Assembly (NCBI GenBank): GCA_045546275.1
Contig: JAZQCM010000001.1
Coordinates: forward strand, 183,079 to 247,078
Direction: 5' to 3'
Source of the DNA: Clostridia bacterium
GTDB lineage: Bacteria; Bacillota; Clostridia; UMGS1883
Length of the DNA: 64,000 nucleotides
Shown here: positions 5,199 to 57,423 of the stretch, piece by piece
Numbering within the stretch: position 1 is the first letter of the stretch
Layout: every line of letters starts with the position of its first letter
Notes under the pieces: generated by a model
The model's input: the letters and a program-made list of their open reading frames with translations, nothing else
What the model was told of the DNA's origin: nothing
The model's database searches: none
Program-made: the position numbers and the translations under genes

Positions 5199-5199
5199 T

Positions 5200-6194: not shown

Positions 6195-6279
6195 AATACT
6201 TGATTATTTATCATAAAATTGTTATACTATAATAAGAAATATGCGGTTAAAACTGCAAATAAAGGACGGAGGAAAAAAC

Positions 6280-6663
6280 ATGGGTGAAAACTATATCTCC
6301 ACAGCAGGTGGTAATATCAGAATTTCCGAAGAGGTTATTTCTATAATTTCAGCAATTGCAGCAAAAGAAGTTGATGGCCTTGCATCAATGGGTGGTTCGC
6401 TTCTTTCCGGTCTTGGCGATCTTATAAGCAAGAAAAACCAGGGTAAGGGCGTAAAGGTTGAGTTTATTGATGATGGTATTGTAATTGAGCTCCACATCAC
6501 AGTGAAATTCGGTGCAAAAATTCGTGAAGTATCTGCCCTCATTCAGGAACAGGTTAAGAACGCTGTCGAAACAATGGTTAGTCTTAATGTTAAGGCTGTA
6601 AATGTTTTTGTTGATGGTATTGAACTTGAAAAAGCAAAAACAGTTGTTGAAGATGCAGAATAA
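6280..6663 (+). CDS. Asp23/Gls24 family alkaline shock protein (YqhY-like)
   Basis: Asp23-like sequence and ~128 aa length. It follows spoIIIAH as yqhY does in Bacillus. RBS GGAGG before the ATG at 6280. Confidence 0.8.
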   Translation: MGENYISTAGGNIRISEEVISIISAIAAKEVDGLASMGGSLLSGLGDLISKKNQGKGVKVEFIDDGIVIELHITVKFGAKIREVSALIQEQVKNAVETMVSLNVKAVNVFVDGIELEKAKTVVEDAE

Positions 6664-6697
6664 TTTATAAATTTTATATACAAAGGAGAGATTTAAA

Positions 6698-8185: not shown

Positions 8186-8205
8186 TTTCGGGAGGAGAGA
8201 GATAA

Positions 8206-8904
8206 ATGTTAGAAGCATTAAAAGAAGCCGTTTTACAGGCTAACTTAGAATTACCTAAGAAAAATCTTGTTACATACACTTGGGGTAACGTAAGTGGTAT
8301 TGACCGTGAAAAAGGTTTGATTGTTATTAAGCCCAGCGGTGTCAGCTATGAAGAAATGAAGGCAAGCGACATGGTTGTTCTTGACCTTCAGGGCAATAAG
8401 GTTGAAGGCGACATGCGTCCTTCCTCCGACACTCCCACTCATATTGCACTTTACAACCAGTACCCCGAATTAGGCGGCGTTGTTCACACTCATTCAAGAT
8501 GGGCAACAGTCTGGGCACAGGCAGGAAAGAGCATTCCTCCCTTAGGCACAACACACGCTGACTATTTCTATGGTGCAATTCCTTGTACAAGAAGACTTAC
8601 ACAGGAAGAAATCGAAGGCGAATATGAGCTTAATACAGGTAAGGTTATTATTGAAACCTTTACAAACCTTGGTATTAATCCTGTTCATGTTCCCGGTGTT
8701 GTTTGCTACAGCCATGGTCCTTTCTCCTGGGGTAAGGATCCCGACGAAGCTGTTCACAATGCTGTTGTAATGGAAGAAGTTGCTATGATGGCACTTAACA
8801 CAAAGCTTCTTAACCCTTCCATTGGCGATGTTGACAGCTACCTTCTTGATAAGCACTTCCTCCGTAAGCACGGCGCAAATGCTTATTATGGTCAGGGTAA
8901 ATAA
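8206..8904 (+). CDS. araD: L-ribulose-5-phosphate 4-epimerase (class II aldolase/adducin family)
   Basis: Conserved AraD blocks [15 protein letters not shown] and THADYFYG. 232 aa. Confidence 0.85.
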
Positions 8905-8914
8905 TTAAATTATT

Positions 8915-8945
8915 AAACGCCACAGCGTAGCTGTGGCGTTTTTAT
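8915..8945 (+). terminator. Intrinsic terminator after araD
   Basis: AAACGCCACAGCG-TAG-CTGTGGCGTTTTT. Confidence 0.8.
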
Positions 8946-9140
8946 GTTGGAAATTGATGTATAAGTAAAGAGGTGACCCTACGGGGACGCGGTCAACTGT
9001 AACTGCTCTGTCGGCGCTTCGCTTGCCAATCGCAGACAGTTTTCGCATAAGCTCTGCCAAGCCAATCACACTTCGCAAAGCTCGTGTTCTTGGGGCAGTA
9101 GCTTATCGAACCTCGGGGTTCGCCATGCAGTAGTTTCCAA

Positions 9141-9180
9141 AAGAAAAAGAGAACATCCAAAGGATGTTCTCTTTTTCTTT
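9141..9180 (-). terminator. Perfect hairpin immediately 3' of tRNA-Glu
   Basis: AAAAGAAAAAGAGAACATCC-aaa-GGATGTTCTCTTTTTCTTTT, a perfect 20-bp palindrome with flanking A/T runs. Confidence 0.65.
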
Positions 9181-9256
9181 TGGTGACCCTACGGGGACTC
9201 GAACCCCGGTCTTCGCCGTGAGAGGGCGACGTCCTAGACCGCTAGACTATAAGGCC
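9181..9256 (-). tRNA. tRNA-Glu (anticodon CUC), 76 nt, with an encoded CCA end
   Basis: Cloverleaf folded by hand: acceptor GGCCTTA/TAGGGTC, anticodon stem TCGCC/GGCGA with loop C-U-CUC-A-C, T-arm CGGGG-TTCGAGT-CCCCG. Confidence 0.8.
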
Positions 9257-9407
9257 AAATCAAATTACTTAATTATATTAACACAAAGAAAATAATTTGT
9301 CAACATAAAACTTTTTCTGAAAATAATTTGAAATTTTTACAAATAAATGCAACTTTTTTCCACCCTGAAAAGTATTATAAATGAAAACACTCAAAGGAGA
9401 GAGAAAT

Positions 9408-11468
9408 ATGAAAAAGTTACTTGTTAAAATTTTTGCAATGGTTCTTGCAATGGTTCTTACACTTACTCCCGTTATTCTTTCAAGCGGACAGCAAAACCCC
9501 ACAAAAACCTTTGAAATTGAAAAAAGTGCCAATACTATTACGAGAGGTGAGTTTTCAAAATACCTTTGTGAGTATTTTGAAAAAAACAGCTATGATGAAG
9601 CCTGCGAATTTTCTGATGTAGACGAAAATAGCGAATACTTTAAGTACATTTCAATTGCAGTTTCTGAGGGCTGGATAACAGGCTTTGAGGACAACACGTT
9701 CCGTCCTGATAACAGTATAACCTTTGAACAGGCAATCACTATTTTGTGCAGAGCATCAGGAATTTACGGCAGCTATTATGAATATCCTGCCGATTACATT
9801 TCATATGCTATTGAACATTCGTTTACTGACGGAATAAACGCTTTAATCGGTGAAAGCATCACCGGTGAACAATTGAGTTTAATGCTTGAAAACTTCAACG
9901 AAAACAGGGAAGATGAGCTTTTGGAGGAAGATGGATTTTCCTTTTCTACCGGTTTATTTGGCTTTAGCGGTGGTGGCTCATCCTATTCCAAATCAAAATC
10001 TGAGAGCGTAAATATGATGGCAGATTTTGAAGCCGGTGTATGGGAAGAAGCAGAAATTGACATGGATGATGCTTTTTATGGCAGTTTTAATACCGAAGAG
10101 TATGTAAAAGAGGCTGAGAACGTGTTTAAAAACGTGTTAACATCTCCGCTCTCAACATTTTCAATCGACACCGATACTGCCTCCTACAGCAATTTACGCC
10201 GCTTTATTTTAAACGGGCAAAAAATCCCCAATGGTTCGGTAAGAAGCGAAGAGCTTATTAATTATTTTACCTACACAAAGGCTGAAACTGAGAAAGGCAA
10301 GCCATTTGGTGTTAATTATTCTGTCGGAGAATGTCCTTGGAACAAAGAAAATTATCTTGCAATGATAACAGTTTCAGGCGAAGAGCTCACAGAATACAAG
10401 CCTTCTAATTTGGTATTTTTGATTGACACGTCTGGCTCTATGAGCGATTATAACAAGCTTCCTTTGGTAAAGAAAGCTCTCTCCATGCTTCTTGACAAGC
10501 TTACCGAAAAGGACACAATATCAATTGTTACTTATGCATCGGGAACAAAAGTTGCACTTGAAAGCACAAAAGCAACCGAAAAGGAAAAGATTTTAAGCGC
10601 AATTGATTCATTGATGGCATATGGTGCTACTTCCGGCGCAAGCGGTATAAATCTTGCTTATGATTTGGCCGAAAAAAACAAGCTTTCCGACGGAAACAAC
10701 AGAATTGTCCTTTGCACAGACGGTGACTTTAATGTTGGCATTTCTTCAACAGGAGATTTAGAAAAGCTTATTGAGGAAAAAAGAAAAAGTGGCATATTTT
10801 TAAGCGTTTTAGGCTTCGGTATGGGTAACTACAAAGACAACAGAATGGAAACCTTAGCCGACAAAGGAAACGGTAATTATGCATATATTGACAACCTTCG
10901 CGAAGCAAAGAAAGTTCTTGTTGACGAAATGAGTAAAACTATTTACACAATTGCAAAAGACGTTAAAATACAGGTTGAGTTTAACCCTGAAACCGTAAAG
11001 GAATACCGCCTTATAGGTTATGAAAACCGACAGCTCAACAACGAAGACTTTGAAAATGACAAGGTAGATGCAGGCGAGCTTGGAGCAGGTGCCACAGTCA
11101 CAGTTCTTTACGAATTAGTTCCGTCTAATGGAAACGTAGAGAATAAGTTAAAGTATCAGACTGTTGAAACCAACGGCAGCAATGAATTGATGTGTGTTAA
11201 AATCCGCTACAAAGAACCAAACGGCACAGAAAGTATTTTGTCAGAATATCCTGTTTTAAAAGAATATAATCAAAGTATTGAAAAGGATTTCTTCTTTGCA
11301 TCGGCTGTAGCAGAACTTGGTATGCTTTTGAGCGAATCTGAATATAAAGGCAATTCAACTTTTGAAAATGTTATAGGTTTAGCGAGACAGGGCATGGACG
11401 AAGATAAATTCGGACTCCGCTGTGAATTTATACAGCTGGTAGACTTATTGAGGTATAGCAGCAAATAA
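9408..11468 (+). CDS. Secreted cell-wall-associated von Willebrand factor A domain protein: signal peptide, SLH-like domain, VWA (MIDAS DTSGS) and a YfbK-like C-terminal domain
   Basis: Hydrophobic N-terminus. The segment FSDVDENSEYFKYISIAVSEGWITGF is SLH-like. LVFLIDTSGSM...TDGDFNVG is a VWA domain. RBS GGAGAG before the ATG at 9408. Confidence 0.7.
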   Translation: MKKLLVKIFAMVLAMVLTLTPVILSSGQQNPTKTFEIEKSANTITRGEFSKYLCEYFEKNSYDEACEFSDVDENSEYFKYISIAVSEGWITGFEDNTFRPDNSITFEQAITILCRASGIYGSYYEYPADYISYAIEHSFTDGINALIGESITGEQLSLMLENFNENREDELLEEDGFSFSTGLFGFSGGGSSYSKSKSESVNMMADFEAGVWEEAEIDMDDAFYGSFNTEEYVKEAENVFKNVLTSPLSTFSIDTDTASYSNLRRFILNGQKIPNGSVRSEELINYFTYTKAETEKGKPFGVNYSVGECPWNKENYLAMITVSGEELTEYKPSNLVFLIDTSGSMSDYNKLPLVKKALSMLLDKLTEKDTISIVTYASGTKVALESTKATEKEKILSAIDSLMAYGATSGASGINLAYDLAEKNKLSDGNNRIVLCTDGDFNVGISSTGDLEKLIEEKRKSGIFLSVLGFGMGNYKDNRMETLADKGNGNYAYIDNLREAKKVLVDEMSKTIYTIAKDVKIQVEFNPETVKEYRLIGYENRQLNNEDFENDKVDAGELGAGATVTVLYELVPSNGNVENKLKYQTVETNGSNELMCVKIRYKEPNGTESILSEYPVLKEYNQSIEKDFFFASAVAELGMLLSESEYKGNSTFENVIGLARQGMDEDKFGLRCEFIQLVDLLRYSSK

Positions 11469-46011: not shown

Positions 46012-47256
46012 ATGCTTAATATTAATCCTAAAATTATTGAATTAGCTAAAGAAATTGAAATAGAAACAGCCGATAAATTTAAAGAAATCGATGAAATTGC
46101 TGCATTTAATCAGGAAAAAGTGTTGAATGCCTTTATAAATAACAGAGTCAGCGACTCACACTTTAACCACTCCACAGGTTACGGCTACAACGATATCGGC
46201 AGAGAAGTTATTGACAAAATTTATGCTGATACCTTTGGCACAGAGGATGCTCTTGTGCGACATAATATTGTAAACGGCACTCATGCTTTGGCAATAGCGT
46301 TATTTGCTGTTCTGCGCCCAAATGATACACTTCTGGCAGTAACCGGCAAGCCTTATGACACGCTTGAAGAAGCTATAGGAATTTCCGGCGACGGAAAAGG
46401 CGGAAGTTTAAAGGAATTTGGAGTAAATTATCGTCAGGTTGATTTAAAGGATAATAAACCCGACTTTGAAAGAATAAAAGAAGAATTAACACAAGATGTA
46501 AAATGCTGTATTATCCAAAGAAGTAAAGGCTACGACTGGAGAGACACTCTTTCAAGCGAGGAAATAGGGGAGATAGTGCAGTTTATTAAGAAAATTAAGC
46601 CTGATACAATTTGTATGGTGGACAATTGCTACGGTGAATTTGTAGAAAAGTTTGAACCCAGCAATTTTGGTGCCGATATGATTGTAGGCTCACTCATAAA
46701 AAATGTAGGTGGCGGTTTAGCGCAAAGCGGTGGTTATATCGCAGGCACCAAAGAATGTGTTGAATTGGCGGCATACCGTCAGACAAGCCCGGGAATAGGC
46801 AAAGAATGTGGTGCAACGCTTGGTCAGAACAGGCACATTCTCCAAGGCTTTTTCATGGCTCCGCACATCGTGGCACAGGCTGTCAAAACTGCAGTATTCT
46901 GTGGTGCTATGATGGAAAAGCTCGGTTTTGAGGTTAATCCTACATCAAAAGGGAAGCGTAGCGACATAATCCAATCAATTAAATTCAATAACCCTGATAA
47001 ATTGATTAAATTCTGCCAGGGTATACAAATGGCTTCACCTGTAGACAGCTTTGCAGTACCTATGCCATGGGATATGCCCGGTTACAACCACCAAGTTATT
47101 ATGGCAGCAGGAACTTTTGTTTCGGGTGCAAGTATTGAAATAAGTGCCGATGCACCAATTAAAGAACCTTATGTTGGTTATCTTCAGGGCGGACTTACAT
47201 ATGAAAGCGGAAAAATTGCAGTTATGTATGCCGCAAGCCGATTGATAGAAGAGTAA
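46012..47256 (+). CDS. YnbB / 'aluminium resistance' family PLP-dependent enzyme (Cys/Met-metabolism, methionine gamma-lyase-like)
   Basis: ~414 aa; sequence character fits the PF06838 family. This is a recognition-level call. Confidence 0.5.
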   Translation: MLNINPKIIELAKEIEIETADKFKEIDEIAAFNQEKVLNAFINNRVSDSHFNHSTGYGYNDIGREVIDKIYADTFGTEDALVRHNIVNGTHALAIALFAVLRPNDTLLAVTGKPYDTLEEAIGISGDGKGGSLKEFGVNYRQVDLKDNKPDFERIKEELTQDVKCCIIQRSKGYDWRDTLSSEEIGEIVQFIKKIKPDTICMVDNCYGEFVEKFEPSNFGADMIVGSLIKNVGGGLAQSGGYIAGTKECVELAAYRQTSPGIGKECGATLGQNRHILQGFFMAPHIVAQAVKTAVFCGAMMEKLGFEVNPTSKGKRSDIIQSIKFNNPDKLIKFCQGIQMASPVDSFAVPMPWDMPGYNHQVIMAAGTFVSGASIEISADAPIKEPYVGYLQGGLTYESGKIAVMYAASRLIEE

Positions 47257-47351
47257 GGGAGTAAAGGGTTTTACTTAAAAGAATTGTTTTAAACACACAA
47301 TTAATTCAACAAAATAAAAATTTTGTTGAATTGGGAATAGGAGGATGTAAT

Positions 47352-48335
47352 ATGAACGTTAATAACGAATACCGCGATATTCCGGCGTTTGCACGGCGTT
47401 TTCTTGTGCATATGTCAACTATTCTCGGCAAATCTGATAAAACTGTACACGAATACTATTATGACCTTCGAACATTTTTCAGATTTTTAATGTGTTATTT
47501 TAACAAAGCTTCCTTTGATGATTTTGATACACTTAATGCTTCTGATTTTTCTATTAAAGACCTGGATAAATTAGTTACAGATGATTTGTATGAATACCTT
47601 ATGTTTATCAGAAATACACGTGATAATAATCCAAATGCTTTAGCACGTAAAATTTCTTGTCTTAAATCGTTTTATAATTATATGACTACAAAATCACATC
47701 AGCTTGATAATAATATTGCTAAAGATCTCGAATCTCCCAAAATTCCCAAAAAACTTCCCAGGTATCTTACATTAGACCAATCACGAAAACTTTTGGAATC
47801 TGTTGATGGCGAATTTGCAGTTCGTGACTATGCAATTATAACATTGTTTTTAAACTGTGGTATGCGTCTTAGTGAGCTTGTTGGTATAAATATGCATGAC
47901 ATGCAAGAAAATAGTATATTTATACGTGGCAAGGGCAACAAAGAACGAAAAGTTTATCTTAATGAGGCTTGTATTGCCGCAATTAATGATTATCTTGCAA
48001 TAAGGCCTCACGACGGGGTTATTGACCGTGACGCTCTGTTCTTAAGCAAAAGAAAAACTCGTATTTCTAACAATATGGTCTATAGAATGGTAAAAAAGAA
48101 CATGGAACGAGCAGGTTTAGACCCGGATAAATATTCACCGCATAAGCTCCGTCATACTGCCGCAACATTAATGTATGTGCATGGCGATGTTGATGTAAGA
48201 GCTCTGCAAGAAATACTCGGTCACGAACAGCTCTCTACCACTCAGATTTATACACACGTTGATGAAAAACAATTGCACGAAGCAGTAAGTCGCAATCCTT
48301 TGGCAAACACAAAAAAGCAAAAAAAAGACAGCTGA
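47352..48335 (+). CDS. Tyrosine site-specific recombinase, XerC/XerD family
   Basis: Catalytic R..HxxR..Y region LRHTAATLMYVHG...LGHEQLSTTQIYTHV. RBS GGAGG before the ATG at 47352. Confidence 0.8.
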   Translation: MNVNNEYRDIPAFARRFLVHMSTILGKSDKTVHEYYYDLRTFFRFLMCYFNKASFDDFDTLNASDFSIKDLDKLVTDDLYEYLMFIRNTRDNNPNALARKISCLKSFYNYMTTKSHQLDNNIAKDLESPKIPKKLPRYLTLDQSRKLLESVDGEFAVRDYAIITLFLNCGMRLSELVGINMHDMQENSIFIRGKGNKERKVYLNEACIAAINDYLAIRPHDGVIDRDALFLSKRKTRISNNMVYRMVKKNMERAGLDPDKYSPHKLRHTAATLMYVHGDVDVRALQEILGHEQLSTTQIYTHVDEKQLHEAVSRNPLANTKKQKKDS

Positions 48336-48349
48336 TGCTGTCTTTTTTT
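48323..48349. terminator. Bidirectional terminator between xerC-like and the ECF operon
   Basis: AAAAAAGACAGCTGATGCTGTCTTTTTTT. Confidence 0.8.
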
Positions 48350-49068
48350 CATTTGAAAACTCCGTATTTTTGCTTAATTCTCTTTAGTTTCTTTCCTATA
48401 GGTTTATTCATAATAATCATAAAAATTACGTTTGATATTACATAACTGAGCATAACGGGAACACTTGCCACAACAAGAGAAATATACCTTTGAAATGTAA
48501 ATAAAGAATCAAGATTAATTGTTGTGTAAATATCCATTACTAAAGAAAAAACCACACCTGCAATTGCTGAAAATGAATATAACAAAACCTTGTTCTTTTC
48601 AAGTAAACTCCTTTTGTTCAGAACACCTGCAATAAAACCAATCAGCCCCCACACAGCCATCTGGAAAATTGTCCATGGACCTTGACCGTATTGCATGTTT
48701 GAAAAAAGTGCGGTAAACGAGCCTGTAATAAATCCTGCATCACAGCCTAAATACATGCCTGTTATTATAACAAGTGCCGTTACAGGTTTAAAATGCGGAA
48801 CAAAAATGAAAATTATCCGAGAAGCTGTGCATAATGCAGTCATTACTGCTATTATGACAATTTCTCTTGAGCTTTGTTTACTTCGCTCAAATTTGCTGAA
48901 AAAAGGTATTAAAACTATTATTGCCGAAATCATTGCAACCAGCATGTATTTTTCATTGCCTAAAAATAAGCTCGAAGTAATTGAAAGAATTATTAAACAA
49001 AATATAGCAAAAATGCTTTTATACTTACTGATATGTACCATTCCTTTTACATAGAGTTGAAATATCAT
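48349..49068 (-). CDS. ECF transporter substrate-specific (S) component, predicted corrinoid-specific (CbrT-like) from operon context
   Basis: Small multi-TM protein that terminates the ECF T-A-S operon. The start is uncertain: candidates are 49068, 49041 and 48945, which give 239, 230 or 198 aa. Confidence 0.55.
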   Translation of the reverse strand: MIFQLYVKGMVHISKYKSIFAIFCLIILSITSSLFLGNEKYMLVAMISAIIVLIPFFSKFERSKQSSREIVIIAVMTALCTASRIIFIFVPHFKPVTALVIITGMYLGCDAGFITGSFTALFSNMQYGQGPWTIFQMAVWGLIGFIAGVLNKRSLLEKNKVLLYSFSAIAGVVFSLVMDIYTTINLDSLFTFQRYISLVVASVPVMLSYVISNVIFMIIMNKPIGKKLKRIKQKYGVFK

Positions 49069-50575
49069 CAATGGTTACTGTGTTTTCAAAAAATCCTTTT
49101 GAAACAATCGATGCAGTTGTTGTGTAAAACTTGTTTTTAGAGAAAACCTGGCGTGGTGTGCCTTCCGAAACGATTTGACCATCATACAAAAAAACACACC
49201 TGTCAGAAAATTCTGCGGAAAACTCCGCATCATGAGTAACTGCAATTATACACATTCCTTTTTCCTTCAACCGCTTTAACAGCTCCCCTACTTCCCTTTT
49301 CCCCTTTGCATCTATCCCCTTTGTTGGTTCATCAAGGCAAAGAATTTCAGGGTTTGTAAGCAGGATTTTTGCAAGAGCTGCCTTTTGTGCCTCTCCTCCG
49401 CTTAAATCAAAGGGATTTCTGTTTAATAGATGAGTAATTTTAAGCTCATCTGCAATTTCCATATAATCATTTGAAACAAGGCTTAAATCATCTTTCAATA
49501 CATCTTTTGTGAAAACTGTTTTGACATTCTGCGGCAAAAGCACTATTTTTGATGTATAATTATGCACTTTCCCCGAATATGGCTTCAAAATATTGTTTAT
49601 AACCCCCATAAAGGAAGTTTTTCCTGCACCATTTCCACCAAGAACAACAGCAATTTCGCCTTTATATGCAGTAAAATTCAATTTTTTCAACACATCGGAA
49701 TCGTTTTTGCCATAACGGAAATAAATATCCTTGGCTCGCAAGGCTTTTTCACCAAATTGAACGCTTTCTTCAATGGAGTTTATATCATTCTTGTAGTTTT
49801 TTCTCAAAAAGCTTCTGCAATCACTAACTGATGCAGGCACATCATTTAAGGATATACCCAGCGCCTTCAGCAACCTTACGGCAAAGGGATATTCAACAGC
49901 ATCGGTATCGAGATTATTAAATACTTCTAAACCTTTTCCTTGGGCAATCAACTTTCCATTTTCCATAACACAAATTTTTGTGGCAAAATTAATTAATTCT
50001 TCAGATTTATGCTCGGAAATGATAATTGTAATCCCCATTTCACTATTAAGCCTTTTTATCATATCAATAAAATTTCTTGCAGCAATTGGGTCAAGCTGAC
50101 TTACCGGTTCATCCAAAAGTAAAATATCCACATCGGATGCCATCACAGACGCAAGAGTTACAAGCTGCTTTTCACCACCTGAAAGTTGGGTGGTTTTTTT
50201 GTGAAAAAGGTGTGTAATGTCAAAAAACTCAGCAGTTTCGGCAACCTTTTGTCTTATTTCATACTTAGGTAACCCCTCGTTTTCAAGAGCGAAGGCAATA
50301 TTGTGCCAAACAGTATCGGAAACAATCTGTGTTTCCACATCCTGTGTTACAATACCGGTTTTTATGCCTCTTTTAATAACTATTTCTCCATTTTTTTCAC
50401 CAAAAGGAGAAATAGCTTCGTTCAAAAGTTTTATTAAAGTTGTTTTTCCGCTGCCGGAAGAGCCTGTTAACAAGATAAAATCTCCTTGATTAACGCTTAA
50501 AGAAAAGTTGTCTAACGCATAGCTTTCCTGCCCGGGATATTTAAAACTTAAATTTTCGATATTAAGTATTTCCAC
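49025..50575 (-). CDS. ECF transporter fused duplicated ATPase (EcfA1-EcfA2)
   Basis: Two ABC cassettes (GSSGSGKTT / GGNGAGKTS; LSGGEKQ / LSGGEAQ). GTG start with a strong AAGGAGGGG RBS. Confidence 0.85.
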   Translation of the reverse strand: MEILNIENLSFKYPGQESYALDNFSLSVNQGDFILLTGSSGSGKTTLIKLLNEAISPFGEKNGEIVIKRGIKTGIVTQDVETQIVSDTVWHNIAFALENEGLPKYEIRQKVAETAEFFDITHLFHKKTTQLSGGEKQLVTLASVMASDVDILLLDEPVSQLDPIAARNFIDMIKRLNSEMGITIIISEHKSEELINFATKICVMENGKLIAQGKGLEVFNNLDTDAVEYPFAVRLLKALGISLNDVPASVSDCRSFLRKNYKNDINSIEESVQFGEKALRAKDIYFRYGKNDSDVLKKLNFTAYKGEIAVVLGGNGAGKTSFMGVINNILKPYSGKVHNYTSKIVLLPQNVKTVFTKDVLKDDLSLVSNDYMEIADELKITHLLNRNPFDLSGGEAQKAALAKILLTNPEILCLDEPTKGIDAKGKREVGELLKRLKEKGMCIIAVTHDAEFSAEFSDRCVFLYDGQIVSEGTPRQVFSKNKFYTTTASIVSKGFFENTVTIDDISTLCKRNGTYQ

Positions 50576-51405
50576 TTTATCCCCTCCTTAAGCTCGTTCA
50601 GACAAGGCAAAAACGATAGAATTGCAACAGACAAATATAACAAATATCCATTATTCTCAAATTTAATTGACGGATAATAGAAAAATTTACCCTGAGAATT
50701 TAAAAGACAAACTATAATAATTGCATCTAAAGCACATACCAAATGAGAAAACAACACATCGTGCTTTGAGTATAAAACATCACTATAGTCGGAGTGCTTT
50801 GCGTTTTCAAAGCCACGGGACCGCATAACATCTGCGGTGTCTATGGCGTTTTCTATTGATAATGAAATCAGCGACGAAAAAGAATTTGTCGCAAGGTTAA
50901 GCTTTCCTTTAATAGTTTTTGTATCAAATACTCCTAAAGCTTTTTGTGTGTTCATTATAGTTTTAGCATTTTCGGTTACAAGTGGAATGAACCTTAATAT
51001 CATAATAAAAACAACGCTTAATTTAGGTGATAGTTTTCCAAGTATGTATGTGAGCTTGTCCTCGGTGAAAACATAGGAAAAAAGCTTAAACCAGAACACA
51101 ACGCCAACAATTAAAAGTGCTGTAGCAAAGCCATAAAAGAGCGCTTCAAAGGTTATACGTTGGTCAAACAAATAGAAAAGCACAGTTTCTCCGTTGTGAG
51201 AAAATATGGGATTAGACAAAGTTATAATGAAAAACAAGGGTAAATACAACTTAATTCCAAGCTTTTTTGTAAAAACCCCCACCGTTATAATACCTCCCAA
51301 AAACAAAACCAGAAGTACTACCGGATTCATTGTAATCAGCGATAAAATAACAATTGATGCAAAGAATATTAATAATGTGATCGGATGAAAATCCTTAAAT
51401 TGCAT
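50548..51405 (-). CDS. ECF transporter transmembrane (T) component EcfT
   Basis: 285 aa polytopic protein with an EcfT-like Arg-rich coupling region. Overlaps ecfA by 28 nt. Confidence 0.8.
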   Translation of the reverse strand: MQFKDFHPITLLIFFASIVILSLITMNPVVLLVLFLGGIITVGVFTKKLGIKLYLPLFFIITLSNPIFSHNGETVLFYLFDQRITFEALFYGFATALLIVGVVFWFKLFSYVFTEDKLTYILGKLSPKLSVVFIMILRFIPLVTENAKTIMNTQKALGVFDTKTIKGKLNLATNSFSSLISLSIENAIDTADVMRSRGFENAKHSDYSDVLYSKHDVLFSHLVCALDAIIIVCLLNSQGKFFYYPSIKFENNGYLLYLSVAILSFLPCLNELKEGIKWKYLISKI

Positions 51406-51407
51406 TA

Positions 51408-51893
51408 TTATCCCCCATTTTTGTAACTTTCACCAATATCTTTTCCCAAATTACAGGTGTACACCCATTCTATTACATCTCCATCATGAAGAACATATTC
51501 ACTGCAGCCTTTGGCAGCAAATTGCCCATTTACAGTGTACATCCAACCCGACAATTCTCCGCAGGAAAATTCATAAACATAATTAATTCCTTCAACATAG
51601 CAGTCATGAAGAGATTGTGTGTATTCAAGTTGTATATTATTCTCTTTTGCCACAGCTTTAAGAGCATCCAACACACTTGAGCCTTTAGATACATTAATTA
51701 TAGTTTTTTGCAAAATTGAACCATTTTCAGGTATGTATTCAGTGTTTTTAAGTGCTTCATCAAGCTTTAAATAGTTTTCAAAAACTGTAGCACAATTAAT
51801 AGATACCGATACACTGATAAGCTCCGCGTCCTTTTGATTACAACCAGAAATAATAACAATTAATACTAAAAATAATACTAATACTTTCCTCAT
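51408..51893 (-). CDS. DUF4430-domain lipoprotein (transcobalamin/intrinsic-factor beta-domain-like)
   Basis: Lipobox LIVIISGCN. C-terminal motif SGWMYTVNG...GDVIEWVY is shared with two other ORFs in the operon. Its ATG overlaps the upstream stop (ATGA). Confidence 0.6.
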   Translation of the reverse strand: MRKVLVLFLVLIVIISGCNQKDAELISVSVSINCATVFENYLKLDEALKNTEYIPENGSILQKTIINVSKGSSVLDALKAVAKENNIQLEYTQSLHDCYVEGINYVYEFSCGELSGWMYTVNGQFAAKGCSEYVLHDGDVIEWVYTCNLGKDIGESYKNGG

Positions 51894-53143
51894 ATTCGTC
51901 TCCTGATTATTATAACAGAAAATATTACAATTGCAACAAAAATCCCCGGAATTGTCCACATATTGAATAATGGTTTGTTGTTTGTTCCAACTTCGTTAAT
52001 CTCGGTCGTTGGTGCTTCTGTTGGTATGTTTTCTTCAATAGTTTCAACAATATTATCGGTAGTTGCTGAAACTTCAACTGTGGGCTCAACAGACAATTTG
52101 ACTTCTGTATATTCATTTATGGGCTCATTAAATAATTCAACTTCTGTCTGGGACACAGCAAAAAACTCGGTAGGTATTTCAATTTCCATCTGAACCGTTT
52201 CAAGCTTTAAAAAAGTCTCTTCCTCTGTTGCAGGCTCGGTTTCGCTTTCAACGTTTTTCGCCATAGCATTTGCTGAATACACAGGCCCGTTCTTATCAAT
52301 GGCCGACAACGCACAAACAGCTTGATATGTTGCCATTACGTCAGTTTCTCCACCTGCAACATGTGAAAACCCATCAGCTGTTTTAAATTGCAATAAGGCG
52401 TTGTGTAAATCTATAAATTCACCATAAAACCTATTTTGAAAAGCTTTCAAGGCAATTATAACCTGTGCTGTACTTTCGGCGTTAGGCACCCCTTTTTCCG
52501 AAAAAGTACCATCTTTGTTCTGAGTGCTTTGCAAGTAATTCATGGCACGCACAACTGTATTGTTGACATTAACATCATCCATATAAAAGGATAAAGCGTA
52601 AAGAACCATGGCTGTGATGTCACAGCTCGACTCATCATCAGAAAGAGAAAAGCCGCCATCTTCATTCTGTTTTGAAAGTATTTCCCTAAGAATTGCGTCC
52701 TCTGTATTAATACCATTTCTGACTTTTTCAAAATTGCCTGAATTTAATGCAATTAACGCCCATATGTAACCATTTAGACCTTGTTTTCCAAGGTTTTCTC
52801 TGAAATACACACCGTCATTTAAAAGATTAATCCCAAAGAAGTTTGTTGCATCGTAACCAAGAAGGTTTAGTGCAATTATTAAGCGGTGCCATTCGGTGGA
52901 TTTGTTTGCACTGAGCTTGCTTTTAGTTAAATACTTGCTTTGTACATATTCATTCAATCCTGTTATATATACGTCCTCATCAAAATCAACTCCCGAAACA
53001 GTCAGTGCAATTGCAGACCAATCTGAATGTGTACTTCCGGGCGAAGACATAAGAACATTTTCTAAAACAGATTCATTTCCCAAAACCACCGTAGAATTTG
53101 AAAGGATACTAAAAACCAATAAAACTATAGCAATCTTTTTCAT
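51890..53143 (-). CDS. Secreted, C-terminally TM-anchored prenyltransferase / squalene-cyclase-like alpha/alpha-toroid repeat protein
   Basis: Signal peptide; repeated motifs QNEDGGFS and QNKDGTF with aromatic spacing, typical of terpenoid-cyclase/prenyltransferase repeats. Glu/Thr-rich linker and a C-terminal TM with RRRI. Confidence 0.55.
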   Translation of the reverse strand: MKKIAIVLLVFSILSNSTVVLGNESVLENVLMSSPGSTHSDWSAIALTVSGVDFDEDVYITGLNEYVQSKYLTKSKLSANKSTEWHRLIIALNLLGYDATNFFGINLLNDGVYFRENLGKQGLNGYIWALIALNSGNFEKVRNGINTEDAILREILSKQNEDGGFSLSDDESSCDITAMVLYALSFYMDDVNVNNTVVRAMNYLQSTQNKDGTFSEKGVPNAESTAQVIIALKAFQNRFYGEFIDLHNALLQFKTADGFSHVAGGETDVMATYQAVCALSAIDKNGPVYSANAMAKNVESETEPATEEETFLKLETVQMEIEIPTEFFAVSQTEVELFNEPINEYTEVKLSVEPTVEVSATTDNIVETIEENIPTEAPTTEINEVGTNNKPLFNMWTIPGIFVAIVIFSVIIIRRRI

Positions 53144-53697
53144 AATAACAAATCTTCCCCATAATTAAGCGTAAATATAAGTTCAATTTTGTCCCCGGGT
53201 TTAGGAATATAATCACACATACCAACAGATGGCAATTCATCATTCACTGTGAATACCCATCCTGATGTATCCGTAAAGTCAAATTCCCCAAGGGTTCCTT
53301 CAATACTTACGCTGTCAGTATATTCAATATTGTTTTCAGATAAATATGCTTTTGCTTCATCGGAAATAAAGGCGTTGGAAGTGTCGATTTCTTCAACTGC
53401 TGAAAGATAAAACCATTCTTCTGTTGTCCCTGAATAAATGGGAACAAAACCGCTTTCTTCGAGAATACTTATAAAAATTTCAGCACAGTTTTGTCCAACA
53501 AAGACAACCTCTGTTAAAGGGACTATTTCTTCTATTGAAACATTCGGTGCTTCTACAGCACAGTAAATATAGTCTTCAATTGGTTCATCATAGTCGTTGA
53601 TATACTCACTGTCTGTAATTTCATACTGCTGAACAATACCTTCAGTAACGCTTGTTAAAGCAATTATGGCAGCGGTTAAAACAGTAAAAATCTTCAT
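53140..53697 (-). CDS. Secreted DUF4430-like protein
   Basis: Signal peptide. C-terminal SGWVFTVNDE...GDKIELIF matches the shared DUF4430-like motif. Confidence 0.5.
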   Translation of the reverse strand: MKIFTVLTAAIIALTSVTEGIVQQYEITDSEYINDYDEPIEDYIYCAVEAPNVSIEEIVPLTEVVFVGQNCAEIFISILEESGFVPIYSGTTEEWFYLSAVEEIDTSNAFISDEAKAYLSENNIEYTDSVSIEGTLGEFDFTDTSGWVFTVNDELPSVGMCDYIPKPGDKIELIFTLNYGEDLLL

Positions 53698-55854
53698 TTA
53701 CTTCACCTCCGTAATCGGAACAAGGCCCTCGTTCCAGACAAACACTTTAATGTTGCCATCCATACCTGAAATGTCCACATTTTCAACATAACAGCCATTA
53801 TCCTTTTCTATTTTCCTTACAATCGTATCTGTTACCATGGAATCATTATAATTAGCAATTATTACATATGCATCACATTTAAGATTTGCATTGATTTTCA
53901 CAAAAACTTCAGATTGTTCAACAGAAATACCTGCTACATTAATTTCCAGCCATGGTGCAATTAAGGGGGAGCCACCCTCCCTTTCCGATGCTGAAATTAC
54001 ATATTTTCCCGGCATATCAAAAGATAATGTAACAACTCCCTGATCATCAGTAGTCTCGATTGTTTCCATTTCACCCGTTTTGGGGTCAACAACAGTAATA
54101 TCCGCATTTGAAATATTCATCATCATATTCTCAAGCTTCGAATCTTCGTAACAGCTGTACCAACCAAAAGGATAACCCTTAAGAGTAAGTGTAAATTCTT
54201 CGCTTTTATTAACATCTATATTTTCACAAGCTTTACCCTGATTTTCAAAATGAACATAGTTGTCTAATGCCCAGTCGTCACGGTAAAAGAAAAACTCAAC
54301 CTTGTCCCCTTCTTTAACAGGAGATTGATTTAAAGAATAACCCGTATAGCCGTAATCAGTCAAAACATCGTCGTGAGGAGCCTTGCCGTTTACAGCAAAG
54401 CCAAAGTTATATGTATCAATACAAAGAACTCTTGATAAATAGCCCTCTTGAGAAACAGAAAGATAATCATTACAGGTTTCTTGCGTAAAATCTTCACCGA
54501 ATGTATCTTCATGAATTTTTACAAGCACGTCAAGAGCAGATGCAGAATCTGTTACAGTGTCTGTATAACCATAGCTTTCAGCCTTATCGGCAAACACTTT
54601 CACATCAGTTAAAGGAACAATAAATCCATCCTCAATTAAAGCAGTACGGACTTTTGTTCTGCTGTCTTTTAACGCAAAAAGATACCCTGAGTCATTTTTG
54701 TAATATAAAGTACCATTTTCATCAGCAATTATGTCTGAAATACAATATTGTGAGTATCCGTCAGCATTATAAATTTCATCGACTATACAATCGTCAACAC
54801 TATCAGCATCAGGTTTGATTTTAATAAGTATAATGCCACCCGGTGTTGAGTTGTATGTGGTGTAAAGATAAATATATCCTTCATCAGCAATGTGAGTTGT
54901 CGATAACAGCACAGTGCATTGGGGATATGCTTTTACAGGAACTGAAAAAAGTTTTGTAAGGCTGTTTGCATCAAACACAGAAATTGTTTTGTTTGCCGTT
55001 CCTATATAAATTCTTCCATTGTAAATTACAGGCGTAGATGTGGATGCTGCGCCAATTTCACCGTATTTAACATCGGACAGTATATTTTTGTCTAATTTAG
55101 CTGAAACAAGGTAACCACCTTTTGTTGTAGCGTAAATTCTGCCTTCGTAATATGTAACAGTTGAACGGATGTCACCTTTGTTTTCAACATCAATGCTGCT
55201 TATAATTTCACCGCTTGTTTTATCGCAGGAATAAATATGAGCAATTTTATCTGTGCCATCATCCGTTGCAAAAATAACAGAATCGTCGGTAGTGTATGCA
55301 CCAACCCAGTACAAGCCGCCATCTATATTTTTACGCCATTTAACCTCTCCTGTTTCACTGTCTAATGCAACAAATGCCGCTTCTTTCTTTTCCCCGTTCC
55401 AGAATCCGGTAAACACCAAGTTTTCGGAGTATGTAACAGGCGACATTCCTTTTCCTCCCGAAATATCTTCAAACACCCATTCTGATTCAAATGTTTCAGC
55501 ATTAAAAGCCTGAACTGTTCCATTTGACAAATTCATGAAAATTTTACCATTAGCAAAAGTCGGTGCAACATAGCCATAGCTTTGCTGCTCTGCCATTGAA
55601 ATTTTTGTAATTATACTTCCGTCTTCAACATTAACTGCAAAAAGCTCGTCACCTGACATGATAACAATTTTATCTTCAACAATCACAGGTACTCCGGCAG
55701 GTTTTTGCCAGCCTTCGCCAATTTTTGTTGCCCATTTAAGGGTTAAGGTGTCGCCGGTGTCAGTATCTGTAACCGTACCAAAAACTGTTATACTGCTTGT
55801 AATAACCAGTATAAAAACCAAAATTACTGTAAAAAAATTTGAGTATGCCTTCAT
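53698..55854 (-). CDS. Secreted PQQ-like beta-propeller repeat protein with an embedded DUF4430-like module and a C-terminal beta-rich region
   Basis: Signal peptide. Recurrent propeller-blade patterns (LFAVNVEDGS, FVALDSETGEVKW, IYATTKGGYL, IYIGTANKTISVFDANS). A mid-region module ..GYSLNQSPVKEGDKVEFFFY.. is DUF4430-like. RBS GGAGG. Confidence 0.55.
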   Translation of the reverse strand: MKAYSNFFTVILVFILVITSSITVFGTVTDTDTGDTLTLKWATKIGEGWQKPAGVPVIVEDKIVIMSGDELFAVNVEDGSIITKISMAEQQSYGYVAPTFANGKIFMNLSNGTVQAFNAETFESEWVFEDISGGKGMSPVTYSENLVFTGFWNGEKKEAAFVALDSETGEVKWRKNIDGGLYWVGAYTTDDSVIFATDDGTDKIAHIYSCDKTSGEIISSIDVENKGDIRSTVTYYEGRIYATTKGGYLVSAKLDKNILSDVKYGEIGAASTSTPVIYNGRIYIGTANKTISVFDANSLTKLFSVPVKAYPQCTVLLSTTHIADEGYIYLYTTYNSTPGGIILIKIKPDADSVDDCIVDEIYNADGYSQYCISDIIADENGTLYYKNDSGYLFALKDSRTKVRTALIEDGFIVPLTDVKVFADKAESYGYTDTVTDSASALDVLVKIHEDTFGEDFTQETCNDYLSVSQEGYLSRVLCIDTYNFGFAVNGKAPHDDVLTDYGYTGYSLNQSPVKEGDKVEFFFYRDDWALDNYVHFENQGKACENIDVNKSEEFTLTLKGYPFGWYSCYEDSKLENMMMNISNADITVVDPKTGEMETIETTDDQGVVTLSFDMPGKYVISASEREGGSPLIAPWLEINVAGISVEQSEVFVKINANLKCDAYVIIANYNDSMVTDTIVRKIEKDNGCYVENVDISGMDGNIKVFVWNEGLVPITEVK

Positions 55855-56122: not shown

Positions 56123-56146
56123 CATCTTTATATTATTCAATTTTAA

Positions 56147-56593
56147 TTATTCAAAACTCATCTGCGAAAAATCACATATGTAAATCCAGCTTATTAAATC
56201 TCCTTCGGAAACAGTATAATCTGTCATAATAGCTTCGTTATTGACTTCATATACCCATCCGCTCATTTCACCGCAGGATTTTTCATAAATGTAATTAATT
56301 CCCTTAGCGTAGCCCGAATCTGCATCAATCTGAATGTCATATTCTTTAGCTACTTTCTTTAAAACATCAAGGGCGCTGTCGCCTTCATTAGCCTCAACTT
56401 CAACAGTTTTAAGTATAAGACCATCTTTGGGCACATACTTTTCATCACGAAGGCTTTCGTCAAGCATTTCGTAATTTGAAAGAATGTCGCTACAGTCAAT
56501 CTCAACTTTAACGTTTACCACATCTTTCTTTGCACAGCCTGCAGTTACAAGCAATACTAAAATGAGTAAAAGTGTTTTGATTAAACTTTTCAT
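56147..56593 (-). CDS. DUF4430-domain lipoprotein (fourth paralogue)
   Basis: Lipobox LVTAGCAK. Motif CGEMSGWVYEVNNE...GDLISWIY. Confidence 0.6.
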   Translation of the reverse strand: MKSLIKTLLLILVLLVTAGCAKKDVVNVKVEIDCSDILSNYEMLDESLRDEKYVPKDGLILKTVEVEANEGDSALDVLKKVAKEYDIQIDADSGYAKGINYIYEKSCGEMSGWVYEVNNEAIMTDYTVSEGDLISWIYICDFSQMSFE

Positions 56594-57423
56594 TAATCAA
56601 TTTCACCTCGTCTACGTAACAAATAATAATTCAGCTCACCACCTACCAGCAAGAATACAATGCAAAAATAAATCCAAAGCATCATGATGATAAGCGCTGT
56701 AAGACTACCATAAAGATATGACTTGTTTGAAAAATTGTCAATATAAATTGAAAATAAATATGAAAAAATTATCCAACCTGATGAAGACAACACCGCTCCG
56801 GGGATTTGTTTTACAAAGCGAAGCTTACGTCCTGTTGCAAATGTATAGATACAGGTAAACACAAAGGACAATACAAGCATTGAAATCAAAAGCTTTGCCG
56901 AAAGTACTTTGCTTACAATGATAATTGCTATCGGAAAAAATTTATTTATAATTTCTCCTGCAACATTTCCGAAAACCATTAAAATCAATGATACCAGTAT
57001 TGCAATCACAACCATTATTGTGAAAAACACACCTTGCAAATTAAGCTTGATAAAATTCCTCTTTTCCTTAACTTTGTAAACACAGTCAAGCCCCTTTTCC
57101 AACGCAACTACGCTTCGGGAGGCTGTCCACAACAGCATGAGTGCAGGTACAGAAATTACCGACACCGAATCTGCGGCAAGAACTTCCGAAATTATATAAT
57201 GCACAAAGCTAAGTACACTTTTGGGGACGTTTCTTCCGAATAAATTAATTATTTCATCGGCAGTAAAGGTTATAAACCTACCTGTCAACATCAGAATTAA
57301 AATCAGAAACGGAACCGCAGAAATCACAATATAGAAGGAAGCATACGCGCTATACACGGTTATATTATCATCACCTGCTGTTTTAAATATTGATTTAGAA
57401 ACATTATACAGCTTCTTTATCAT
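56593..57423 (-). CDS. YihY/BrkB family inner-membrane protein
   Basis: 276 aa polytopic protein with a YihY-like N-terminal block. Confidence 0.7.
   Translation of the reverse strand: MIKKLYNVSKSIFKTAGDDNITVYSAYASFYIVISAVPFLILILMLTGRFITFTADEIINLFGRNVPKSVLSFVHYIISEVLAADSVSVISVPALMLLWTASRSVVALEKGLDCVYKVKEKRNFIKLNLQGVFFTIMVVIAILVSLILMVFGNVAGEIINKFFPIAIIIVSKVLSAKLLISMLVLSFVFTCIYTFATGRKLRFVKQIPGAVLSSSGWIIFSYLFSIYIDNFSNKSYLYGSLTALIIMMLWIYFCIVFLLVGGELNYYLLRRRGEID

Follow-up and report, generated by a model that had tools for sequence, protein, structure and literature searches.

The animal cobalamin carriers transcobalamin (TC), intrinsic factor (IF), and haptocorrin (PDB ID codes 2BB5/2BB6, 2PMV, and 4KKI/4KKJ) combine an α6/α6 toroid with a DUF4430 β-domain, as does the pair of bacterial proteins described here. 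[quoted passage not shown] In 2019, Verplaetse et al. (bioRxiv 10.1101/864751) modeled a heterodimer of the Lactobacillus sakei proteins Lsa1840 (α) and Lsa1839 (β); as far as the available text of the two papers goes, both are computational predictions. The only Gram-positive B12 importer characterized in the literature that we searched is ECF-CbrT, which was studied without extracellular accessory proteins, none being mentioned in the available text of Santos et al. 2018 (eLife 7:e35828). A 2026 review (PMC13616437) describes, in its available part, the extracellular capture roles of BtuH/BtuJ homologues in Gram-positive Firmicutes as entirely uncharacterised.

We analyzed a 64,000-nt stretch of a Clostridia bacterium genome (the window; GenBank assembly GCA_045546275.1, contig JAZQCM010000001.1, positions 183,079 to 247,078), in which an initial annotation had proposed a two-polypeptide TC analogue of a sort not described for Gram-positive B12 uptake. 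This claim to novelty fails, as both papers precede it: the split toroid/DUF4430 pair belongs to a kind already predicted in 2007 and 2019. Since the idea had already been described, the value of the locus is that of a clean, well-contextualized test case and not of a discovery.

Results

A Cobalamin Riboswitch Heads the Operon

The two genes lie within a seven-gene operon on the minus strand, with a cobalamin riboswitch at its head and genes for a CbrT-like ECF transporter at its tail. The order is riboswitch, β-propeller–SLBB protein, secreted SLBB protein, toroid protein, SLBB lipoprotein, EcfT, EcfA-A', and CbrT-like S component; the genes overlap or sit close together, and all coordinates given for the operon are window positions on the minus strand. 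The riboswitch aptamer forms the operon leader (RF00174; 55952..56139) and matched the whole model at 100.7 bits (E 5.4e-24) against a gathering score of 31.5, bearing out the placement of the pair within a B12-riboswitch operon by the initial annotation. Directly 5' of it is a promoter-like site (56140..56168; TTCGCA-17-TAAAAT, 9/12 matches), which is a consensus match only. At the other end, 3' of the S gene, we found a terminator-like hairpin (48318..48351) with a stem of 15 pairs and then a T-run; no strong terminator-like site was found upstream of it in the operon.

The first gene (53698..55854) encodes a 718-aa exported protein (PQQ_2, 64.2 bits in Pfam) that combines a BamB/PQQ_2-type β-propeller (approximately aa 28–300) with a DUF4430-like segment (approximately aa 400–530). 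The protein aligns with DUF4430 proteins across the VNG...GD core, and its PDB matches are to BamB only (E ∼1e-6). The second gene (53140..53697) encodes a 185-aa secreted DUF4430 protein (40.9 bits in Pfam), a paralogue of the 161-aa lipoprotein discussed below, and its stop codon overlaps the ATG of the toroid gene in an ATGA at 53143–53140. Both proteins have hydrophobic N termini. A further DUF4430 lipoprotein of 148 aa is encoded at 56593..56147, just upstream of the riboswitch. Thus, three further DUF4430 genes or segments, absent from the initial annotation, are present at the locus; Pfam matched three DUF4430 proteins in all (two in the operon and one just upstream of the riboswitch), in addition to the DUF4430-like segment of the 718-aa protein.

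Downstream of the pair are genes for a 285-aa ECF T component of the CbiQ family (50548..51405; CbiQ, 44.5 bits in Pfam), a 516-aa fused double ABC ATPase, EcfA-A' (49025..50575; two ABC_tran domains, 161 bits in Pfam), and an ECF S component (48349..49071; ECF-ribofla_trS, 41.9 bits in Pfam). NCBIfam scored EcfA-A' at 309.8 bits for ECF_ATPase_1 and 289.5 bits for ECF_ATPase_2, just under the equivalog cut-offs; for the toroid, DUF4430, T-component, and S-component proteins it had no model. The best solved relative of the S component was its counterpart in L. delbrueckii ECF-CbrT (6fnp_A; E 3.6e-10 over 170 residues, aa 68–237). A CbrT-homologous S component, a dedicated T component, and ATPases therefore stand together under a B12 riboswitch, and their sequences indicate that this ECF module is likely to be a CbrT-like, vitamin B12-specific transporter.

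These features bear on whether the ligand might instead be heme or another tetrapyrrole, as was proposed for the L. sakei lsa1836–1840 locus. In the available text, Verplaetse et al. (bioRxiv 10.1101/864751) docked heme into their homology-modeled heterodimer and connect the locus with the uptake of heme. However, the window operon is preceded by a cobalamin riboswitch, as are 11 of 16 sampled related loci (upstream and on the same strand), including those of Paenibacillus, Pseudogracilibacillus, and Ligaoa, and the closest solved relative of its S component belongs to a B12 transporter. We consider a ligand other than a corrinoid to be quite improbable.

The 417-aa Protein Is an Anchored Single Toroid

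The proposed α-domain equivalent (51890..53143) is a 417-aa type I membrane protein. Behind a signal peptide (signal-like segment at aa 4–22), it contains an α6/α6 toroid (aa 26–300; 52244..53068), an acidic linker whose translation is rich in Thr, Glu, and Pro (aa 301–392; 51968..52243), and a C-terminal transmembrane helix (aa 395–413; 51905..51961; Kyte–Doolittle 2.58), which is followed by RRRI, cytoplasmic in the predicted topology. In the AlphaFold model, the toroid has at least 12 helices with pLDDT mostly 94–98, giving it the barrel fold of the TC α-domain, and a helix at aa 397–416 coincides with the C-terminal hydrophobic segment. The linker is predicted to be disordered (pLDDT <50 at aa 314–391), and the model suggests that it is probably a wall-spanning stalk. 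Pfam matched Prenyltrans (39.4 bits), SQHop_cyclase_C (28.3 bits), and SQHop_cyclase_N (24.7 bits), and the repeats QNEDGGFS and QNKDGTF fall at aa 159–166 and aa 208–214; the Pfam matches, hydrophobic segments, and AlphaFold model all agree with the earlier description of a secreted, membrane-anchored α/α-toroid protein carrying these motifs. A phmmer search of the PDB with the single 417-aa sequence gave weak terpene cyclase matches only and was set aside.

Such matches raise the question of whether the protein is an enzyme that works on an isoprenoid at the cell surface, as a member of the terpenoid cyclase/prenyltransferase superfamily, and has the DUF4430 gene beside it merely by chance. 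Twelve residues are invariant in the toroid family (W42, T83, R87, Q121, G122, L130, G163, D175, G212, E223, H261, and Q274), and where cyclases have DxDD, the family has D-x-D-[IMVL]-T-A-M. The D-x-D retained there (D173 in 55/71 sequences and D175 in 71/71) is what an enzyme would share, but in place of a third Asp all 71 sequences have a hydrophobic residue (I, M, V, or L), and the 417-aa protein itself reads S173-C174-D175-I176. Class II cyclases need two toroid domains with the active site in between. The window protein, with its single toroid of ∼275 residues, has neither the catalytic DxDD nor the two-domain (βγ) active site of class II cyclases and prenyltransferase β subunits. Moreover, it is exported and membrane-anchored, its association with DUF4430, with ECF genes, and with a B12 riboswitch is conserved, and TC itself retains the D-T-A-A-M segment. 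We give the enzymatic reading almost no credence.

The DUF4430 Lipoprotein Shares a Family with the TC β-Domain

The proposed β-domain equivalent, a 161-aa DUF4430 (TC-like SLBB) lipoprotein, is encoded at 51408..51893. The initial annotation had the toroid gene directly upstream of it with a stop/start overlap, and this is what the sequence reads: the TGA of the 417-aa ORF (51892–51890) overlaps the ATG (51893–51891) as ATGA at 51890..51893, with AGGAG 6 nt 5' of the ATG. An alternative start, GTG 51959 in the program-made ORF list, was rejected in favor of ATG 51893 because of the ribosome-binding site, the lipoprotein signal, and the agreement with homologues and with the 161-aa protein deposited at NCBI. 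From this ATG, the protein opens with the lipoprotein signal MRKVLVLFLVLIVIISG ahead of C18 (lipobox I-S-G-C18), and Pfam matched DUF4430 at aa 71–146.

The PF14478 threshold (23.8 bits) was passed both by this protein (70.8 bits) and by residues 352–424 of human TC (24.9 bits; TC sequence validated against PDB 7qbf); judged by sequence, the 161-aa protein shares its Pfam family with the human TC β-domain. An hhalign comparison of the 161-aa protein family with the TC β-domain spanned the hairpin region at 93.5% probability (P 2.3e-7, against 0.33 for a reversed-sequence control). Members of this DUF4430/SLBB family carry a β-hairpin insert after the β-grasp helix, and the insert is present here; in the model of a 430-aa single-chain relative, P0143, helix 348–358 is followed by strands 363–368 and 373–379. 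Two PDB searches were uninformative: phmmer with a single DUF4430 sequence returned spurious Argonaute PAZ matches, and the DUF4430 profile, swollen to 249 positions, gave no match, likely because the long row of the 718-aa C terminus inflated it.

For the toroid, a Foldseek search with the model retrieved chains of TC (E 5e-4 to 2e-3). An hhalign comparison with the TC α-domain (17 mammalian TC sequences) was colinear over 244 columns, although its P of 0.0055 (control 0.23) is suggestive only. This comparison is weak because the TC profile is shallow (Neff ∼1.8), the human TC homologue search having returned mammalian TCN2 only, at ≥70% identity. The alignment pairs D175-I-T-A-M with TC D176-T-A-A-M and QxxDGxF with QTPEGHF, and after a manual gap shift, N221-A-E-S-T with TC N224-V-Y-S-T. 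In TC, D176, N224, and Q86 may contact cobalamin; no weight is placed on this here. Cobalamin_bind (PF01122) had no match in the 417-aa protein and matched 4 of 71 family members, at best with E 0.067, and a PDB search with the toroid family profile (E ≤10) brought up no chain of TC, IF, or haptocorrin.

The initial proposal of a two-polypeptide TC analogue was therefore partly supported. Homology, fold, gene fusion, and genomic context speak for it, and the analogy holds in most respects; one reservation is that AlphaFold, applied to a single-chain relative, did not place the two domains as they are in TC.

Toroid and DUF4430 Genes Are Syntenic and Repeatedly Fused

In one scan of species-representative genomes, the operon type was found at 578 loci or more, many of them in gut Oscillospiraceae and Ruminococcaceae. 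Carriers also include Paenibacillus and Kurthia zopfii (loci L021 and L034). Of 66 related loci with enough downstream sequence, 44 have a same-type DUF4430 gene immediately 3' of the toroid, an adjacency beyond chance, and the T component is conserved downstream in 48 of 66. At 43 of 67 related loci, the start of the toroid adjoins the end of an ORF with a DUF4430-type domain, and where loci were seeded by the toroid alone, a DUF4430 ORF lay at most 3 kb away in 74 of 80. Related loci with at least 5 kb of downstream sequence carry T and A-A' genes in 38 cases and an S gene in 33 (out of 54).

At the fully syntenic locus L081/L082 of a related species, toroid and DUF4430 form a single 557-aa ORF, which is present on six contigs from independent assemblies. 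Across the family, 44 of 203 members are fusions in the order toroid, then DUF4430, and at least 13 changes between fused and split forms map onto a rough neighbor-joining tree of the toroid family. The usual joint is a two-helix membrane hairpin (P0016 and about 40 others); these chains run signal peptide, toroid, TM1, TM2, and DUF4430, an order that leaves both domains extracellular. P0143 joins the domains directly through a short linker without TM segments and belongs to the same operon type behind a riboswitch. An assembly artefact was rejected as the source of the fused orthologues because the same fused protein occurs on six independent contigs and ∼44 distinct fused proteins exist.

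These fusions weigh on another account of the locus, in which the SLBB/DUF4430 proteins bind corrinoid alone and the toroid has another accessory role in uptake (as scaffold, cell-wall glycan binder, CbrT docking partner, or binder of a different corrinoid form), with no TC-like sandwich. That the operon has several SLBB modules and one toroid fits this account, as does the modeled single-chain relative with its non-TC-like arrangement. So, too, do some related loci where the toroid accompanies SLBB and propeller proteins with no ECF genes within 8 kb. The recurrence of toroid–DUF4430 fusion in TC order, including the fused syntenic orthologue, argues against it, and so do the existence of a direct short-linker fusion of TC-like size and the family-wide invariance of motifs shared with TC, such as D175 and QxxDGxF. 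On balance, we judge this account rather unlikely.

Discussion

Our preferred reading is that the two genes form the middle of a B12-riboswitch corrinoid-scavenging operon whose SLBB and toroid proteins probably act as a ligand-bridged two-chain clamp feeding CbrT. In this mechanism, low intracellular cobalamin would allow the operon to be expressed. Both proteins would then reside on the outer face of the membrane, the toroid protein held by its C-terminal helix behind a flexible stalk of ∼95 residues and the DUF4430/SLBB protein by a lipid anchor with a short tether. The SLBB domain would bind corrinoid first and the toroid would cap it, as in TC, IF, and haptocorrin, so that a heterodimer would be held together by its ligand. 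The covalent linker of the animal proteins would here be replaced by translational coupling and co-anchoring, and in the orthologues, by the two-helix membrane hairpin that joins both domains in one chain. Corrinoid concentrated at the membrane in this way could be handed to CbrT and imported by the ECF module. The long stalk of the toroid protein, set against the short tether of the lipoprotein, gives no obvious advantage to a fixed pair. DUF4430 genes also lie on both sides of the toroid gene, and its product could instead partner the 185-aa protein encoded upstream.

We put forward more tentatively, at slightly less than even confidence, the broader idea that a corrinoid-induced two-chain clamp serves an ECF transporter as a device like a substrate-binding protein and represents the bacterial progenitor of animal TC, caught in repeated fission and fusion that includes the previously unremarked toroid-TM-TM-SLBB hairpin. 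ECF transporters, by definition, operate independently of substrate-binding proteins. Should the pair bind corrinoid as a ligand-bridged clamp, ECF transporters could be said to use extracytoplasmic binding proteins, and there would be experimental grounds for the proposal that the animal B12 carriers arose in bacteria. This operon type also offers concrete candidates for a missing step, the extracellular capture of scarce cobamides by Gram-positive bacteria.

Comparison with Known Systems

The Bacteroides proteins BtuG, BtuH, and BtuJ follow the same logic as the window operon, being high-affinity surface corrinoid binders encoded with a transporter under B12 control. BtuG is a β-propeller, as is the product of operon gene 1, but the 718-aa protein matches BamB-type propellers only. 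As far as tested, the BtuG/BtuH/BtuJ families are unrelated to the window proteins, and unlike these, they sit on the outer membrane and feed a TonB-dependent transporter.

L. sakei lsa1836–1840 resembles the window operon in its component set. According to the available text, HHpred matched one exported protein to the TC α-domain and a second to the β-domain; their genes share a transcriptional unit with those for the ECF T, A-A', and S components, and the authors propose the heterodimer as a ligand scavenger for the S component. In contrast to the window operon, the ligand was assigned as heme, not B12, and that text mentions no riboswitch. ECF-CbrT of L. delbrueckii (Santos et al. 2018, PDB ID code 6FNP) has a homologous S component and shares the T component and two ATPase domains, whereas the window operon encodes a dedicated ECF module of its own, with its two ATPases fused.

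Unlike the animal carriers, the toroid has no Cobalamin_bind match, and its sequence lies nearer to those of terpene cyclases. In TC, a cobalt-coordinating His precedes D-T-A-A-M; the window protein has no His there (S-S-C-D175). TC is one soluble polypeptide with a short linker, whereas the window pair is encoded by two genes with each product membrane-tethered, and its proposed delivery is to a transporter rather than by receptor-mediated endocytosis. A two-piece binder nevertheless has a likeness in cleaved IF, whose fragments IF30 and IF20 retain tight cobalamin binding in a complex recognized by cubilin (PMC6257451, available text). The N-to-C order of TC, α and then β, is also that of the fused bacterial orthologues.

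The systems outlined by Burroughs et al. [quoted passage not shown] We found each of these in the window, where the SLBB and toroid proteins carry a signal peptide or are anchored at the surface and the ATPase and CbiQ-like genes stand beside the paralogous SLBB genes. The available text of the 2007 account covers "interacting paralogues" and fusions that join the domains, in either order, on a single chain; to what is spelled out there, the window and its relatives add a translationally coupled split pair, toroid-TM-TM-SLBB hairpins, a CbrT-type S component, and riboswitch control.

A coupled gene pair in the middle of a cobalamin-riboswitch operon

The gene for the alpha/alpha-toroid protein (417 aa; ORF 53143..51890, minus strand) runs into that for a DUF4430 lipoprotein (161 aa; ORF 51893..51408, minus strand; preferred start ATG 51893) through an ATGA at 51893-51890, in which the TGA of the former overlaps the ATG of the latter. 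AGGAG lies 6 nt upstream of this ATG, and the NCBI-deposited protein is the 161-aa form. Its N terminus is a lipoprotein signal with a lipobox ending at C18, and Pfam DUF4430, a transcobalamin (TC)-like SLBB domain, matches with 70.8 bits. The toroid protein begins with a signal-like segment. The domain after it hits Pfam Prenyltrans (39.4 bits), SQHop_cyclase_C, and SQHop_cyclase_N and includes both QNEDGGFS and QNKDGTF; next come an acidic stretch of ∼95 residues rich in Thr, Glu, and Pro and, at the C terminus, a hydrophobic helix and then RRRI. The two-gene observation of the initial annotation (ORFs, ATGA, motifs, and DUF4430) was thus correct in every detail on re-examination.

The pair sits midway in a compact operon, which opens with a promoter-like site (56168-56140, minus strand) and then a full-length cobalamin riboswitch (56139-55952, minus strand; RF00174, 100.7 bits). 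The first gene (53698-55854, minus strand) encodes a 718-aa exported protein with a BamB/PQQ_2-type beta-propeller and then a DUF4430-like segment at ∼aa 400-530. The second gene encodes a secreted DUF4430 protein of 185 aa, and its stop codon and the toroid start share another ATGA (53143-53140). The toroid gene therefore has a DUF4430 gene on either side. Downstream of the lipoprotein gene are those for a CbiQ-type T component of an ECF transporter, a fused double ABC ATPase, and, last in the operon, an S component, with a terminator-like hairpin of 15 pairs at its 3′ side (48351-48318, minus strand). Among solved structures, the S component is closest (E 3.6e-10) to 6FNP chain A, the equivalent subunit of ECF-CbrT, a vitamin B12 transporter from Lactobacillus delbrueckii.

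Upstream, two minus-strand genes occupy 56147-57423 and overlap by 1 nt, stop to start, at 56593. One product is a membrane protein of the YihY/BrkB family (276 aa; Pfam 183.6 bits); the other, a DUF4430 lipoprotein of 148 aa, is 44% identical to its 161-aa counterpart. Both genes lie just before the riboswitch and are therefore outside its control; the pair is kept in the syntenic locus L081/L082. Directly past the terminator is a tyrosine recombinase-like gene (334 aa; 47331-48335, plus strand) and also a Met-gamma-lyase-like gene (414 aa; 46012-47256, plus strand). Both occupy the same positions in L081, so the recombinase-like gene is probably resident and not a sign of recent mobility.

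Relation of the two proteins to transcobalamin

We used a human TCN2 sequence confirmed to be identical to PDB 7qbf_A. Residues 352-424 scored 24.9 bits against DUF4430 (gathering threshold 23.8), and residues 4-323 matched Cobalamin_bind. Running hhalign with the bacterial DUF4430 profile against the last 112 residues of TC (17 mammalian sequences) gave a probability of 93.5% and a P of 2.3e-7 over 97 columns (reversed-sequence control, P 0.33). These profile comparisons make the 161-aa protein a relative of the TC beta-domain, in agreement with its initial description as beta-domain-like. Lipoprotein-type DUF4430 domains also share a cysteine pattern, INC, DCY, FSCG, KGC, and YTC (aa 18-161 of the 161-aa protein), and at least 90% of the aligned domains have C111. 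The TC beta-domain lacks this pattern, and the 185-aa paralogue retains little of it; these cysteines could form disulfides or, by analogy with BtuM, provide a cobalt ligand.

An AlphaFold model of the toroid protein, built with 71 sequences, reached pLDDT >90 for the greater part of residues 30-300 and placed a disordered stalk before a terminal helix, and Foldseek agreed on a TC alpha-domain-like fold. The proposed alpha-domain likeness thus held for the modeled fold, but a specific relation to the TC alpha-domain is only weakly indicated. The toroid family profile matched squalene-hopene cyclase (E 7e-18) and found no TC chain, and only 4 of 71 family members touched Cobalamin_bind (best E 0.067). 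In hhalign, family and TC were colinear over 244 columns with P 0.0055 (control, P 0.23). The alignment pairs toroid D175-I-T-A-M with TC D176-T-A-A-M and Q-x-x-D-G-x-F with Q-T-P-E-G-H-F, both motifs being invariant or near-invariant in the toroid family; N221-A-E-S-T pairs with TC N224-V-Y-S-T only after a gap is shifted by hand.

At aa 173-179 (52606-52626, minus strand), the family keeps D-x-D-[IMVL]-T-A-M, with D175 in 71/71. This motif is what remains, in degenerate form, of the DxDD region of class II terpene cyclases, and its third Asp position holds I, M, V, or L in all 71 sequences. An enzymatic toroid, which we rank third among the rival explanations, is opposed by this replacement, by export of the protein, and by its single-domain size. 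With D176-T-A-A-M at the aligned position of human TC, the motif suggests descent from a cyclase-like toroid through a bacterial binder to TC.

Fused orthologues and conserved context

In close toroid homologues (45-51% identity), the C terminus is a DUF4430 domain 57-64% identical to the 161-aa protein. Locus L081/L082 is gene-for-gene syntenic with the window, in the order SLH protein, BrkB, DUF4430, riboswitch, propeller, DUF4430, 557-aa fusion, CbiQ, ABC, S component, integrase, and Met-gamma-lyase; its fused protein occurs on 6 contigs from independent sources. Nearly all fused forms consist of signal peptide, toroid, stalk, TM1, short basic loop, TM2, and DUF4430. The membrane hairpin thus stands in for the toroid anchor and the lipoprotein signal peptide, with both domains outside, and the topology is equivalent whether the proteins are fused or split. 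Hairpin fusions include P0003, P0016, and ∼40 other relatives, and at L081 the fusion lies at 8001-9674; P0003 and P0016, both inspected, have lost the lipobox cysteine. We found no description of this architecture in the literature surveyed. In P0143, a 430-aa lipoprotein of TC size and order, the toroid joins DUF4430 directly, in an operon reading riboswitch-DUF4430-fusion-CbiQ-ABC-S. Among 203 toroid family proteins, DUF4430 is C-terminal in 44 and N-terminal in 3, with at least 13 fused/split changes on a rough NJ tree.

A scan of species-representative genomes yielded at least 578 toroid loci, of which 80, all from Bacillota, were kept. A same-strand DUF4430 ORF lay within 3 kb in 74 of the 80, a lipoprotein-type DUF4430 directly downstream of the toroid gene in 44/66, ECF T and A-A′ genes downstream in 38/54, and a same-strand upstream cobalamin riboswitch in 11 of 16 sampled loci. 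Functional linkage through fusions and context is the strongest evidence for the pair. The fusions point to the downstream 161-aa protein as the toroid's partner, with the upstream 185-aa protein as the alternative.

Tandem cobalamin riboswitches (4791-4974, 115.3 bits; 5112-5261, 45.3 bits) precede the related operon of Ligaoa zhengdingensis (L026). One stop-to-stop ORF spans the double ATPase and S component in L041, L050, L051, L053, L055, L057, L061, L071, L073, L074, L078, and L080, and L084 has a called ABC-ABC-S gene of 802 aa (5760-8168). Such ORFs may be A-A′-S fusions of the ECF transporter; in near-identical L083, the ATPase and S component are two proteins (620 + 171 aa), and frameshifts may thus account for some cases.

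Proposed mechanism and comparison with known systems

Under B12 limitation, the riboswitch would permit operon expression, and surface modules (propeller-SLBB, secreted SLBB, stalked toroid, and SLBB lipoprotein) would capture corrinoids. SLBB lipoprotein and toroid would clamp the ligand in the manner of the two TC domains, and the ligand would pass to the CbrT-like S component for import by the dedicated ECF module. The rival we rank first has the corrinoid bound by SLBB only, the toroid having another role. For closure by both domains, the split two-chain design is biochemically plausible by analogy, since intrinsic factor cleaved into IF30 and IF20 still binds cobalamin tightly, in a ternary complex recognized by cubilin (PMC6257451). 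Overall, the initial interpretation appears essentially right, with a pair that is real and conserved.

BtuG of Bacteroides is a beta-propeller B12 binder. The 718-aa propeller protein recalls it, although the search turned up no sequence relation: its PDB matches were to BamB only.

The pair had been held to be new for Gram-positive B12 uptake, which is wrong because two studies already describe such proteins. Burroughs et al. 2007 (PMC1796856) defined the TC-like SLBB clade. In bacteria they reported fusions of this domain to a beta-propeller and, before or after it, to alpha/alpha toroids, as well as paralogous SLBB partners and CbiO/CbiQ operons; they predicted that such proteins scavenge B12 and that animal TC originated in low-GC Gram-positives. 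In Verplaetse et al. 2019 (bioRxiv 10.1101/864751), separate exported Lsa1839 (beta-like) and Lsa1840 (alpha-like) accompany ECF T, A-A′, and S genes, and their modeled heterodimer is assigned heme. The rival explanation that we rank second takes heme to be the ligand, following the L. sakei proposal. A term search of the ECF-CbrT paper (PMC5997447) returned no mention of accessory proteins, and a 2026 review (PMC13616437) calls extracellular capture by cobamide-binder homologues in Gram-positive Firmicutes entirely uncharacterized. We found no experimental test of a split toroid/DUF4430 pair in the literature searched. The pair is a new member of a kind known from computational prediction, to which the hairpin-fused variants and the strict split/fused synteny add detail.
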